From a virus (lineage: Duplodnaviria > Heunggongvirae > Uroviricota > Caudoviricetes), in the IMG/VR virus record IMGVR_UViG_2896607866_000011: a stretch of DNA of 12,302 nucleotides, one strand, 5' to 3'. Made by a program: the position numbers and the translations under genes. Shown here in pieces: positions 2,575 through 12,302 of this stretch (position 1 is its first letter; the number at the start of each line of letters is the position of its first letter). The notes below the pieces were generated by a model, which saw only the letters and a program-made list of their open reading frames with translations, did no database searches and was not told the origin of the DNA.

Positions 2575-2916
2575 TCACCCACTGTGGTATATGCGTTGTG
2601 GTCTGCCAACTTTGCCGTGAACAATTTCAGCAATAATCAGATGGCGGCTGGCGCAATATTCAAGATAACGCCTGGCAGTGGTGCGGCTGATGGTCAGTGC
2701 CTGCGCCACCGTTTCTGCCGTATGTTGCACACCAGGCTCTTTAAACAGTTTTCGCACCGCGTTTAGCGTCAAGGGGTCAATGCCGGTCGGCAGTTCGTCT
2801 TTGGGTTCACCGCGAGCATAGGCATTAAACATCTCATCAATTTGCTTCTGGCTGGCGCTATCAATACTTTCCAGCATATGTTTACGCTGGCGGAAACGGG
2901 TTAGCGTTTGCCCCAG
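2575..2916 (-). pseudogene. dpiA: dpiA (citB) 3' fragment, codons 114-226 (HTH output domain), separated from its 5' part by the prophage
   Basis: Minus-strand translation LGQTLTRFRQRKHMLESIDSASQK...GRPQRIYHSG matches the DpiA C-terminus; reading frame ends abruptly at the Mu left end (2917). Confidence 0.9.
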
Positions 2917-3100
2917 TGTATTGATTCACTTGAAGTACGAAAAAACCGGGAGAACATTGGATTATTCGGGATCTGATGGGATTAGATTTGGTGGGGCTTG
3001 CAAGCCTGTAGTACAAATTTTAGGCGTTAACCAATGAAACGCGAAAGATAGTAAAAAATTGCTTTTGTTTCATTGAAAAAACGAAAAACAAAAACACTAT
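2917..3100 (+). promoter_or_regulatory. Mu attL: left-end transposase binding sites L1-L3
   Basis: MuA-site-like repeats at 2917..2946 (TGTATTGATTCACTTGAAGTACGAAAA), about 3027..3050 (TGAAACGCGAAAG) and about 3066..3090 (CATTGAAAAAACGAAAAAC). Confidence 0.75.
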
Positions 3101-3208
3101 AAATCATTTCAATCATAGCTTCAAAAAACGTTCAAAACCGATAACAACCAGGCGGTAATGCTGCCAACTTACTGATTTAGTGTATGATGGTGATTTTAAG
3201 GTGCTTGC

Positions 3209-3484
3209 GTGGCTTCCATTTCCATCAGATGTCCTTCCTGCTCCGCTACTGAAGGCGTGGTGCGTAACGGCAAAAGCACTGCCGGACATCAGCGCTATCT
3301 CTGCTCTCATTGCCGTAAAACATGGCAACTACAGTTCACTTACACTGCCTCTCAGCCCGGTACGCACCAGAAAATCATTGATATGGCCATGAATGGCGTC
3401 GGATGTCGCGCCAGCGCACGCATTATGGGCGTTGACCTCAACACGGTTTTACGTCACTTAAAAAACTCAGGCCGCAGTCGGTAA
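3209..3484 (+). CDS. insA: IS1 InsA (transposition inhibitor and N-terminal part of InsAB' transposase)
   Basis: 91-aa [42 protein letters not shown]... matches IS1 InsA (zinc finger plus HTH). Confidence 0.93.
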
Positions 3485-3510
3485 CCTCGCGCATACAACC
3501 GGGCAGTGAT

Positions 3511-3906
3511 GTGATTGTCTGCGCTGAAATGGACGAACATTGGGGCTACGTCGGTGCTAAATCACGTCAGCGCTGGCTGTTTTACGCGTATGACAGGATA
3601 CGGAGGACGGTTGTGGCGCACGTCTTCGGTGAACGCACTCTGGCCACACTGGAGCGTCTTCTGAGCCTGCTGTCGGCCTTTGAGGTCGTGGTATGGATGA
3701 CGGATGGCTGGCCGCTGTATGAATCACGCCTGAAGGGAAAGCTGCACGTTATCAGCAAGCGTTACACTCAGCGCATTGAGCGACATAATCTGAATCTGAG
3801 ACAACATCTGGCAAGGCTGGGACGGAAGTCACTGTCGTTCTCAAAATCGGTGGAGCTGCATGACAAGGTCATCGGGCATTATCTGAACATAAAACACTAT
3901 CAGTAA
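3511..3906 (+). CDS. insB: IS1 InsB reading frame (expressed as InsAB' by -1 frameshift at the A-run near 3455..3462)
   Basis: ORF ...[21 protein letters not shown]...[18 protein letters not shown] matches IS1 InsB; frame is -1 relative to insA; TTAAAAAACTC slippery motif at the end of insA. Confidence 0.9.
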
Positions 3907-4030
3907 GTTGGAGTCATTACCCAACCAGGCTGTCACCAAATGACTCATATCACAAATCAGCTCATGCCGTTTAGGTATGTTACATGTGTGATTATGTGAG
4001 GTGAAGTATGTTTTAGCTGGCTCATGGTTG

Positions 4031-4540
4031 TTATACGGCTTTTTTCGCATCTTGTGGTTCCAACAAAGGAGCTACAGGCTCTTCCTGTTTATGAACACCA
4101 TACATTGACAAAATCTCTTGGCGAGTTTCTGGAGGTAATTTATGCAGCGCCAAAGCTGTTTGTAGTGTTTGGCGATCAATACCCAGCGTTGCCAATAGGG
4201 TGTCAACGGAGATGGAGGGGCGTTCTTGCATTAATCCGGAAAGCCCATATTTAGCCATGTTTAGCTCTATCTCTCGGACTTCATTTTCTCCTAGTTTATT
4301 GATTAACAGGGAGAACATTTTCAATGTATCAGCATTCATTTCTTCGATAGCAATTTTTTGCATAGCCGGTATTGCCGGGATATATTCAACCCCAGGCCCG
4401 CGACGCCCTTCTTGTGAACGCTTCGGCCATCCCTCTTTCTTTGCTCGTTTATGCACCCCCTGTATTGTCCCAGGCATTCCATCCAGTTCAGTAATTTGTT
4501 TGGGTGTCATCCACTGGTTTATCTCATTTGCGCTTTTCAT
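4031..4540 (-). CDS. c: Mu-family repressor (c / Repc-like), 169 aa, transcribed leftward
   Basis: Position and orientation as Mu c; N-terminal motif DGMPGTIQGVHKRAKKEGWPKR...GVEY is the Mu repressor / MuA domain I-alpha winged-helix signature; sequence diverges from Mu c as I recall it. Confidence 0.8.
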   Translation of the reverse strand: MKSANEINQWMTPKQITELDGMPGTIQGVHKRAKKEGWPKRSQEGRRGPGVEYIPAIPAMQKIAIEEMNADTLKMFSLLINKLGENEVREIELNMAKYGLSGLMQERPSISVDTLLATLGIDRQTLQTALALHKLPPETRQEILSMYGVHKQEEPVAPLLEPQDAKKAV

Positions 4541-4702
4541 AAACTAAGTTTACCAGATTTATCTATATAAAAATCAATGGATTACAAAATAAACCACATC
4601 AACTGATATAAACCGATTGGGTTTATTTGATTTATATGGCAATGTATAAAACAGATAATCAAGACGAATTATTTGTTTTGATAACCCTTTATCATACGCA
4701 AT
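4541..4702. promoter_or_regulatory. Early operator region between c and ner (divergent Pc/Pe promoters, operator/enhancer repeats)
   Basis: AT-rich 160-bp spacer between divergently oriented c and ner with repeated ATAAACC / TTTAT motifs; equivalent position to Mu O1-O3 / internal activation sequence. Confidence 0.55.
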
Positions 4703-10624: not shown

Positions 10625-10639
10625 GGCGTTACCAGCCTT

Positions 10640-10673
10640 GTTTACCGTTTCCTGTAAACCGAGGGGCCGTTTC
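10640..10673. repeat. Right G-segment border with gix recombination half-site
   Basis: TTCCTGTAAACCGAGG (10649..10664) matches the gix/hix-family half-site; the second half-site looks degenerate. Confidence 0.4.
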
Positions 10674-10717
10674 TGGCCTGCATGGCATGATTTCCGCTTT
10701 TAAACGGGGAATTCAGC

Positions 10718-10915
10718 GTGCTGATTGGCTATGTAAGGGTATCAACAAATGACCAGAATACAGACCTGCAACGAAACGCTCTTGTTTGTGCAGGATGTGA
10801 ACAAATATTTGAAGATAAATTAAGCGGAACAAGGACAGACCGACCGGGATTAAAACGTGCTTTAAAGCGCCTTCAAAAAGGAACGCATATAGAAAACGAC
10901 GATCGAATCAATTAA
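10718..10915 (+). pseudogene. gin: gin G-segment invertase remnant: N-terminal about 55 aa fused in frame to the last about 9 aa (about 128 codons deleted)
   Basis: GTG-initiated ORF MLIGYVRVSTNDQNTDLQRNALVCAGCEQIFEDKLSGTRTDRPGLKRALKRLQKG matches the Gin N-terminus and then jumps to (A)HIENDDRIN, the Gin C-terminus; only 65 codons versus about 193. Confidence 0.85.
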
Positions 10916-11008
10916 ATCGATCTGTATTACCGATCGATTATGTCCCGATAACCACACCCGACTGATGAGATTTTTTAAGATAACGGCGAATTGATGCAAG
11001 GAGGTGAA
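10896..11008 (+). promoter_or_regulatory. mom operon control region: three clustered GATC (Dam) sites upstream of the com-mom promoter
   Basis: GATC at 10901..10904, 10919..10922 and 10932..10935 within 35 bp, immediately upstream of com; corresponds to the Dam/OxyR-controlled region of Mu Pmom. Confidence 0.65.
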
Positions 11009-11197
11009 ATGAAATCAATTCGCTGTAAGAACTGCAACAAACTGTTATTTAAAGCGGATTCCTTTGATCACATTGAAATCAGGTGTCCGCGTTGCAAACG
11101 TCACATCATAATGCTGAATGCCTGCGAGCATCCCACGGAGAAACATTGTGGGAAAAGAGAAGAAATCACGCATTCTGACGAAACCGTGCGTTATTGA
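11009..11197 (+). CDS. com: Com, zinc-finger translational activator of mom
   Basis: 62-aa [54 protein letters not shown]... (Cys4 motifs) matches Mu Com; AAGGAGGTG Shine-Dalgarno directly upstream of ATG 11009. Confidence 0.88.
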
Positions 11198-11843
11198 GTA
11201 TGAAGGCCAGATTGTTGGCTATGGTTCAAAGGAGCTGCGCGTTGAAACCATATCCTGCTGGCTGGCCCGCACAATCATTCAGACAAAGCACTATTCCCGC
11301 CGTTTTGTGAATAACTCTTACCTTCACCTGGGAGTATTCAGCGGGCGTGATCTGGTTGGCGTTCTCCAGTGGGGATATGCCCTTAACCCCAACTCAGGTC
11401 GTCGTGTCGTGCTTGAAACGGATAACCGGGGCTATATGGAGTTGAATCGCATGTGGCTACACGACGACATGCCCCGCAACTCTGAATCACGGGCCATCAG
11501 CTACGCGCTGAAAGTTATCAGATTACTGTATCCGTCAGTGGAGTGGGTTCAGTCCTTTGCTGACGAACGCTGCGGACTCGCAGGCGTTGTGTATCAGGCG
11601 TCGAATTTTGATTTTATTGGCAGCCATGAAAGCACGTTCTACGAGCTGGATGGTGAGTGGTATCACGAGATAACGATGAACGCGATTAAGCGCGGAGGGC
11701 AACGAGGCGAGTATTTGCGAGCTAATAAGGAGCGTGCCGTGGTGCACAAATTTAATCAGTATCGCTACATCAGATTCCTGAACAAGCGAGCAAGGAAGCG
11801 GCTAAATACCAAACTATTCAAGGTTCAGCCATACCCTAAGTGA
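11148..11843 (+). CDS. mom: Mom DNA-modification enzyme (adenine N6 modification, anti-restriction); start assigned to in-frame GTG 11148, and the ORF is open from ATG 11118
   Basis: ORF ...[41 protein letters not shown]...[10 protein letters not shown] matches Mu Mom; overlaps the 3' end of com as in Mu; GTG start gives 231 aa. Confidence 0.85.
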
Positions 11844-11958
11844 TCCCCATGTAATGAATAAAAAGCGGTAATTAATACAGCTGTTTCATTTGAAGCGCGA
11901 AAGCTAAAGTTTTCGCATTTATCGTGAAACGCTTTCGCGTTTTTCGTGCGCCGCTTCA
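11844..11958 (+). promoter_or_regulatory. Mu attR: right-end transposase binding sites R1-R3 and terminal CA
   Basis: Sequence ...GAAGCGCGAAAGCTAAAGTTTTCGCATTTATCGTGAAACGCTTTCGCGTTTTTCGTGCGCCGCTTCA matches the Mu right end with repeated CGAAA(A/G)C MuA-site cores. Confidence 0.8.
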
Positions 11959-12302
11959 CCCAGCCGTTCATAGGCAATTGGCTTAATGAGATAATCAAAT
12001 ACACCACAACGTACGGCTTCAGACACCGTTTCCATATCACTGGCTGCAGTGGTAAACACCACGTCGCCGGGATAATGCGCCTGCACCAGTTCATGCAGTA
12101 AATTAATCCCTCTACCGTCAGGAAGATAGTTATCGAGCAAGATTAGCCCCGGCTTAAAACGCTCGATCATCATTCGGGCCTGCGCCAGGTTTCCCGCCAG
12201 TAATATCTGACTGAATCCGGGAATGTGACGAATATATTCCGCATGCATCTCTGCCAGCGGCGTTTCGTCCTCAACGATCAATAGGGTTAATGGAGCTGTC
12301 AT
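11959..12302 (-). pseudogene. dpiA: dpiA (citB) 5' fragment, codons 1-114 (receiver domain); ORF continues 13 codons into the Mu right end before a stop at 11919
   Basis: Minus-strand translation MTAPLTLLIVEDETPLAEMHAEYIRHIPGF...DYLIKPIAYERLG matches the DpiA N-terminus, then reads EAAHEKRESVSR* from prophage sequence; ATG is at 12300..12302, the window edge. Confidence 0.9.

Follow-up and report, generated by a model that had tools for sequence, protein, structure and literature searches.

Phages Mu (NC_000929) and D108 (GQ357916) share a gene order that runs from c, ner and A at the left end to S, U, U', S', gin, com and mom at the right. Their relative SfMu (NC_027382; PMC4406740) is complete and inducible and has its host in the genus Shigella. 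A further immunity type is represented by full-length elements of about 35-36 kb, namely a prophage in yphC of E. coli UMNF18 (NZ_AGTD01000001) and two uncultivated viral genomes (UViGs 2925825570_000001 and 2711768053_000014). The DNA considered here, referred to below as the window, is the whole 12,302-nucleotide stretch of record IMGVR_UViG_2896607866_000011; its host is Shigella flexneri, and its positions 2917-11958 hold a 9042-bp element with the gene order of Mu and D108. Unlike these phages, the element has a dead gin, a single gix site and two insertion sequence (IS) elements, and about 81% of a Mu-type genome is missing from it. It is very probably a defective prophage that derives from a single Muvirus transposition into codon 114 of dpiA in an ancestor of S. 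flexneri.

Insertion of a Mu-type element into dpiA

The element lies between two copies of the pentamer CCCAG (2912-2916 and 11959-11963). At the left junction, host DNA ending in GCGTTTGC is followed by CCCAG and then by TGTATTGATTCACTTGAAG, with which the element starts at 2917; at the right junction, CGCCGCTTCA ends the element at 11958 and is followed by CCCAG and CCGTTCATAGG. The empty locus of E. coli reads GCGTTTGC-CCCAG-CCGTTCATAGG, with a single CCCAG exactly at the insertion point. When positions 2917-11963 are excised and the minus strand is translated from the ATG at 12302, a dpiA gene of 226 codons is recovered, the product of which is identical to E. coli DpiA (WP_000126500.1) at 226 of 226 residues. 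The insertion falls after codon 113. The 5' half of the gene (codons 1-113; 11964-12302, minus strand) carries the Pfam Response_reg domain, and the 3' half (codons 114-226 and the stop; 2575-2916, minus strand), the last five bases of which are the left copy of the duplication, gives a match to HTH_64 on an open reading frame (ORF) of 100 aa. Both the duplication and the in-frame rejoining of the two halves had been proposed in a first-pass annotation made from the letters alone, and both are borne out. The same is true of the comparison with related genomes that this annotation had suggested: 5409 of 5426 complete E. coli genomes have an uninterrupted cit-dpiB-dpiA region with one CCCAG, the closest being 99.6% identical, and the insertion is absent from all 5426.

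An exact match of five bases at both junctions would arise by chance about once in 1000 cases. The target consensus of MuA, 5'-CYSRG, is preferred about 7-fold in vivo and is fitted by eight pentamers (PMC7350765), of which CCCAG is one. Taken together, the rarity of the match, the empty site and the fit to the consensus exclude chance, and the repeated CCCAG is a 5-bp target-site duplication of the Muvirus kind, checked against the empty site.

The termini of the element point in the same direction. In local BLAST searches against Mu, SfMu and D108 they align with the ends of all three phages; positions 2917-3153 match Mu 1-238 with 95% identity, and the final 200 bp contain three differences from Mu attR (about 98% identity). 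Scanning with the published MuA-binding consensus YMYNWRAARYRCGAAAR gave eight matches in the window, compared with 1.8 expected by chance, and all six MuA sites lie at their canonical offsets from the ends. The left end, attL (2917-3153, plus strand), contains L1 (2927-2943), L2 (3031-3047) and L3 (3071-3087), and the right end, attR (11844-11958, plus strand), contains R3 (11887-11903), R2 (11910-11926) and R1 (11932-11948), as placed by alignment and consensus scan. With 5'-TG...CA-3' termini and three MuA sites on each side, these ends are those of a Muvirus. The ends, the duplication, the empty site and the consensus target all agree with the genuine Mu transposition stated in the first-pass annotation, and dpiA has been inactivated by MuA-type integration.

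The reading frame of the dpiA 5' half runs on into attR and gives rise to a junction-specific product of 127 aa (11919-12302, minus strand), composed of the DpiA receiver domain (residues 1-113) and 14 codons from the Mu attR. This truncated ORF, which overlaps the dpiB end, is listed as a response regulator in the annotation of hundreds of genomes. In strains with an intact dpiB, the stand-alone receiver might in principle still be phosphorylated.

Distribution of the insertion and its IS600 junctions

The window is 99.98% identical to GCA_900457175.1 and 99.99% identical to a second IMG/VR record, UViG_2526164649_000013. That record (12,301 bp) is filed as viral, although host DNA makes up a quarter of it and its phage portion is no more than a dead remnant. 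The exact 544-aa truncated transposase A' of the element is labelled S. flexneri and occurs also in run ERR127046, which is S. flexneri 531/61, a serotype X, phylogroup 4 isolate from the UK in 1961. The 127-aa junction product was found in 699 contigs (780 index blocks), all named S. flexneri, and the exact c repressor in at least 1000 contigs of that name (6687 blocks); Mom is indexed in 1484 blocks. The insertion is not private to the window genome; it is an old event, common to S. flexneri lineages and a S. boydii strain.

This spread bears directly on whether the element could be a laboratory artefact, that is, an engineered mini-Mu or Mud construct or an assembly chimera. It resembles classical mini-Mu vectors in size, in having both ends around a short interior and in lacking transposition functions of its own. 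It differs from them in that its deletion is natural and IS-associated, that there is no marker or reporter gene and that no sign of movement since insertion is seen. Its interior is natural phage DNA with IS1 and IS600, its immunity region is not that of Mu c, and its junctions recur in hundreds of clinical isolates of independent origin and in complete long-read genomes, the 1961 isolate included. The missing marker, the natural interior and the spread among clinical isolates effectively rule out a laboratory mini-Mu, and an artefactual origin merits next to no credence.

Structural variants were surveyed in the longest 24 contigs per look-up, and all genomes mapped share the dpiA junction, or both junctions, with the window. 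The identical attR-CCCAG-dpiA junction is present in S. flexneri 3a, 3b, Y, K-1770 and NCTC strains and in S. boydii 600080. The arrangement of the window, IS1 included, is that of two NCTC assemblies (variant A), the protein records of which carry the label S. flexneri, and the IMG/VR contig L049 has the same arrangement minus IS1. Variant B, found in S. flexneri 3a FDAARGOS_713, CP066809, 3b SFL1520 and K-1770, keeps both CCCAG junctions; its attL is uninterrupted to 3967 and is followed by IS600 and then by window position 8090 onward, with c, ner and A' gone and a different IS1 at 9873-9881 flanked by its own 9-bp duplication. In variant C (S. boydii 600080, clade 1a, CP049606.1; and CP026810.1), only window positions 10319-12302 are left, preceded by ybhA-mod-gal DNA and an IS1, an order that shows an IS1-mediated rearrangement. 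Variant D (2a ATCC 29903, 2b FDAARGOS_690 and 5 str. 8401) has the left half as in the window without IS1, the same left junction of IS600 and, beyond it, head genes of another prophage, which suggests a rearrangement at the IS600. Variant E, from serotype Y strain 89-141, shares this left junction and has its right junction at 9684. The window is one of the least eroded versions of the element.

Some of these arrangements extend into other parts of the chromosome. In variant C, about 1.7 kb from the dpiA junction, IS1 joins the Mu right end to a phage integrase fragment and ybhA-modCBA-acrZ-modEF-galE, and this junction represents a large IS1-mediated deletion or inversion between the dpiA and gal regions. 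Contigs L027-L036 (S. flexneri 2a, 2b, 5 and others) carry portal_3, Mu_F-like, Pa193_gp24 and major capsid genes beyond IS600, bounded by another IS3-family element; here either the two parts of the Mu remnant have become separated or the right one has been lost.

Mu integrates almost at random, and an identical site, orientation and duplication in the copies therefore indicate one event. Between lineages, the element differs by 1.2-3.0 mismatches per kb, compared with 2.1-3.0 in 10 kb of flanking chromosome; equal divergence inside and outside is what an insertion dating back to the common ancestor of the copies would show.

The size of the element is explained largely at IS600. This IS3-family element with orfA and orfB (1264 bp; 6564-7827, plus strand) is 99.8% identical over its full length to the IS600 of pWR100/pCP301, which are S. 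flexneri virulence plasmids. It lacks the 3-bp target duplication of a simple insertion, its flanks being TAT and AAC, and this is consistent with an IS that sits on a deletion or recombination junction. On its right the phage sequence resumes at SfMu 32618, which places IS600 at the junction of a deletion of about 29.7 kb corresponding to SfMu 2903-32617. The loss comprises the 3' end of A, B, all early genes, kil/gam, mor, C, the lysis, head, tail and baseplate genes and the constant part of S (Sc), and the region from Mu 2965 to about 31960 has no match anywhere in the window by local BLAST. Lacking MuB, Mor/C and the lysis, head and tail genes, the element is a defective derivative of the family and not a complete phage. 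It is small because of this deletion together with one of 384 bp in gin, and IS1 adds to its length: the 9042 bp consist of 768 bp of IS1 with 9 bp of duplication, 1264 bp of IS600 and about 7.0 kb of phage-derived DNA, or 19% of Mu.

The left junction of IS600 (6563) is common to variants A, D and E, and its right junctions are nested at 7828, 8090 and 9684; a shared left and nested right junctions are the pattern expected of successive deletions anchored at one resident IS. The history of the element began with MuA-type integration into dpiA, which produced the CCCAG duplication. IS600 would then have brought about the loss of the 29.7 kb in place, through adjacent deletion or through recombination of one IS600 copy with another, and different lineages carry nested deletions that all start at the ends of IS600. 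In the sublineage of the window, IS1 subsequently entered the left-end region.

An alternative possibility is that the element was already small on arrival, as a deleted Mu derivative that was packaged headful by a helper and transposed into dpiA as a mini-Mu. Such a history would fit the left IS600 junction, which is common to all arrangements that keep the left half, so that the big deletion must be very old, and it would fit a gin deletion that seems older than the insertion. However, the IS600 junctions of variant B differ on both sides (3967 and 8090) and are most simply explained by erosion of a larger precursor in situ, later deletions at the same IS600 took place demonstrably in situ, and the presence of IS600 at the junction shows that the deletion occurred in a Shigella-type chromosome. 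No second copy was found elsewhere in the contigs surveyed. Arrival as a mini-Mu is thus very improbable, and decay of a larger prophage in place is preferred. Three points nonetheless weigh against a single insertion followed by decay in place: the survey of variants is a sample; no genome with a full-length prophage at dpiA was found, the decay being deduced from the nested variants and from the junction at IS600; and the copy in S. boydii may stem from homologous recombination rather than from descent.

In the window, IS1 (768 bp; 3154-3921, plus strand) is identified by the Pfam families InsA and DDE_Tnp_IS1. The isoform is divergent, with 91% identity to IS1A, and its perfect 9-bp target duplication, CAACCAGGC, occupies 3145-3153 and 3922-3930. 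In other lineages the site is uninterrupted, and L049 shows it empty with a single CAACCAGGC. With its length of 768 bp, terminal inverted repeats, InsA/InsB and 9-bp duplication, this IS1 is a simple later insertion in the sublineage of the window. A separate IS1A lies between pagP and dcuC in E. coli QML220614 and, by annotation, in the B/BL21 strains, and window positions 540-548 correspond to its empty site.

The neighbouring genes are decaying as well. The dpiB gene, which encodes the partner kinase and lies about 30-1700 bp past the end of the window, decays independently of the element. Its full 552 aa are kept in S. boydii 600080 and in S. flexneri Y 89-141, whereas it is 508 aa long in 3a-type genomes and split into two to three ORFs in the NCTC assemblies and CP026810. 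In some genomes citT, citG and citD are also broken.

Gene content and immunity type

To the right of IS1, the Mu left end continues downstream of the c stop (3922-4030, plus strand, equivalent to Mu 230 to about 340), and positions 3922-4139 match Mu 230-447 at 87.6%. The c repressor gene that follows (4031-4540, minus strand; Pfam HTH_Tnp_Mu_1) is full length and encodes 169 aa. The protein is 36%, 28% and 30% identical to the repressors of Mu, D108 and SfMu, respectively, and 85% identical to that of the UMNF18 prophage, which has the same length. In the phage collection searched, the best match to the repressor was 36% identical, and no isolated phage there has this immunity type. The repressor is of an immunity type that is not that of Mu, D108 or SfMu, and the source phage belonged to a third or fourth immunity type of Muvirus. 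The placement in a Mu/D108 family made in the first-pass annotation holds for the Mu family as a whole and fails for the immunity region, which is neither that of Mu nor that of D108.

The next gene, ner (4703-4957, plus strand; Pfam HTH_35), is an ORF of 84 aa, or 78 aa as usually called from 4721, and its product shares 99% identity with the UMNF18 Ner and 68% with Mu Ner. It overlaps the gene for the truncated transposase A' (4932-6566, plus strand), the 544 aa of which correspond to MuA 1-545 and match the Pfam families HTH_Tnp_Mu_1, HTH_Tnp_Mu_2, DDE_2 (E=9e-136) and, in part, Mu-transpos_C. A' is 91-92% identical to the A proteins of Mu, D108 and SfMu and 96% to that of UMNF18, and residue mapping shows that the DDE triad (D269, D336 and E392) is kept. 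Domain I-alpha of MuA recognises the operator/enhancer. This domain of A' is identical to Mu at only 35 of 75 positions, and residues 77-545 are 95-100% identical to MuA. IS600 cuts A at residue 545 of 663, removing the end of domain II-beta and all of domain III, and the stop codon of A' is supplied by the first bases of IS600. A c gene divergent from ner-A, next to a MuA-type DDE transposase, is the arrangement of a Muvirus, and the left half conforms to it with a truncated A. With ner at 57-68% identity to Mu and D108, domain I-alpha at 35/75 and c at 36%/28%, the element is heteroimmune to both.

Between the divergent c and ner lies a spacer (4541-4702) that, from its position, presumably contains the operators and the early promoter. 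It includes a tandem 9-mer and an inverted repeat, ATAAACC-GATTG-GGTTTAT (4608-4626). In a comparison of 14 S. flexneri-type copies, the 162 bp of the spacer contain 10 substitution sites and a 9-bp indel, and the remaining 2471 bp contain 16 variable sites; changes are roughly 10-fold enriched in the spacer, and the c protein is invariant. The variation is densest at 4613-4640, where site 4615 has three alleles, and it overlies the inverted repeat and the tandem 9-mer, which are probably the operators.

The right half begins with the 3' fragment of the variable tail-fibre gene Sv (7828-8544, plus strand; Pfam gp37_C), which is 96.8% identical to SfMu S and contains an ORF (7885-8544) corresponding to SfMu S residues 270-488. 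It is followed by the tail-fibre assembly gene U of the SfMu type, equal to Mu U' (8547-9080, plus strand; 97.7% to SfMu U; Pfam Caudo_TAP), and by the genes of the opposite G orientation, namely the assembly gene U' (9109-9636, minus strand; 93% to Mu U and SfMu U') and the variable tail-fibre part S'v (9638-10624, minus strand; 93% to SfMu S'), which has no Sc to fuse to. The G segment is in the SfMu orientation. Its right boundary holds the single surviving gix (10634-10664), a stretch that aligns to both G boundaries of Mu; the gix core occurs once in the window and twice in Mu, SfMu and the prophage L046 discussed below, the left gix having been lost along with Sc. The gin remnant (10718-10915, plus strand; 65 aa) matches only the N-terminal part of the Pfam Resolvase family and, by comparison with the SfMu junction, has a 384-bp in-frame internal deletion with the junction AAAGG at 10877-10881 (AAAGG/AAACG microhomology); its residues 1-55 are 100% identical to Gin and are followed by about 10 aa of the C terminus. 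The G segment otherwise retains its genes, and with one gix and no functional gin it is frozen. At the right end, com (11009-11197, plus strand; 62 aa; Pfam Zn_ribbon_Com) is full length and 98.4% identical to Mu Com, and mom (11118-11843, plus strand; Pfam Mom) is a full-length ORF of 241 aa, or 231 aa as usually called, 99.2% identical to Mu Mom. The pair forms the com-mom module typical of a Muvirus. An Rfam scan of the window returned no family at threshold.

The age of the gin deletion is informed by a sibling. L046 (PSSR01000001.1, GCA_002968245.1) is a near-complete Mu-like prophage that extends from the tape measure gene to mom. Its gin'-com-mom-attR region has the same 384-bp deletion and differs from the window at 1 of 1294 positions (99.92% identity), yet its right end adjoins an IS600 interrupted at position 1152, next to flgJKL, whereas the element of the window is in dpiA. 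The G segment of L046 has the opposite orientation to that of the window, with which it shares only 94.9% identity, and L046 has both gix sites along with a dead gin. A phage lineage with a dead gin has thus once transposed in these bacteria. Because the near-complete sibling shares the deletion, the gin deletion is probably older than the dpiA insertion, and the incoming phage would probably have carried it already; gene conversion between co-resident prophages is the alternative for the shared deletion. The gin lesion, at first taken for decay after insertion, has been reinterpreted on this basis. The decay of the prophage announced in the first-pass annotation would accordingly apply to the 29.7-kb loss at IS600, and the gin deletion is probably not part of it.

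Among described relatives, SfMu comes closest at the nucleotide level in the G segment (94%, in the same orientation) and at the right end (96%), but its c protein is only 30% identical. The UMNF18-type elements are closest in the immunity module (c 85-88%, ner 99%, A 96%). They occupy other insertion sites, their immunity region is only 88-93% identical at the nucleotide level, and the UMNF18 prophage has different lysis and head modules. The element is a Muvirus by descent whose right part and A core are closest to SfMu and Mu and whose immunity module, domain I-alpha of A included, is closest to the UMNF18 type. A 'cryptic SfMu' has been reported in many S. flexneri from mor-lys PCR and EcoRV bands (PMC4406740). 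Identity with it is unsupported: the mor-lys target is deleted here, the reported bands correspond to SfMu 1240-5815 and 7325-11080, regions that are largely or wholly absent, and an in-silico EcoRV digest of the dpiA locus gives fragments of 3579 and 10274 bp. The literature library searched contained no description of a Mu insertion in dpiA in Shigella, and the genome paper of S. flexneri 3b SFL1520 is silent on it.

State and significance of the element

Transposition of Mu needs full-length MuA, the domain III of which serves in assembly, catalysis and contacts with MuB and ClpX, as well as target capture by MuB; expression of mom needs C, and inversion of G needs Gin and two gix sites. 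Since MuB, MuA domain III, Mor, C, the structural genes, Gin and the second gix are all missing, the element is predicted to be unable to transpose alone or to make particles, with its late functions silent and its G segment frozen. The sequences of its ends and of c, ner, com and mom are intact, and it could in principle be acted on in trans; no evidence of such action was found.

These intact parts raise the question of whether the remnant is useful to its host. In that case, c, ner and the operators would have been kept for immunity against homoimmune Mu-like phages, and the element would act as a natural mini-Mu, open to mobilisation by heteroimmune helpers such as SfMu. The c gene is indeed full length, and its protein is identical in several S. 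flexneri lineages (the 6687 blocks mentioned above); all six MuA sites are intact, as are com and mom in every variant seen, and the excess of changes in the putative operator region is striking. On the other hand, an intact gene of 510 bp is expected under neutrality at a divergence of about 0.2-0.3%, c has been lost in the variant B lineage (3a, 3b and K-1770) and in the S. boydii copy, and every copy in the contigs surveyed is at the same dpiA/dcuC site with no secondary insertion. A selection test on c from the differences between lineages, which amount to one or two synonymous changes in 510 bp, has no power. A retained function is therefore unlikely; the intact genes would fit neutrality at the divergence of these lineages, and domestication is not claimed.

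Prophage decay by IS elements is the rule in Shigella. As the defective product of one Muvirus transposition, the element is an ordinary dead prophage, biologically unsurprising and unusually well resolved. It is at the same time a clean natural record of Mu transposition, with exact ends, a consensus target and a verified empty site, and it adds a Muvirus immunity type for which the phage collection searched contains no isolate. For the host, the insertion into dpiA accounts for one of the steps by which S. flexneri lost the DpiBA/citrate-fermentation regulon. The junctions and the nested IS600 and IS1 states serve as lineage markers for S. flexneri, and they provide a test case of shared ancestry versus recombination with S. 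boydii. It is a tentative and rather doubtful proposal that the dpiA::Mu junction was inherited vertically by S. flexneri (3a, 3b, X, Y and others, possibly 2a) and clade-1 S. boydii, with the repressor-operator module perhaps selected for phage immunity. If the vertical inheritance were true, the junction would point to one ancestor shared by Shigella lineages that are generally taken to have emerged from E. coli independently.

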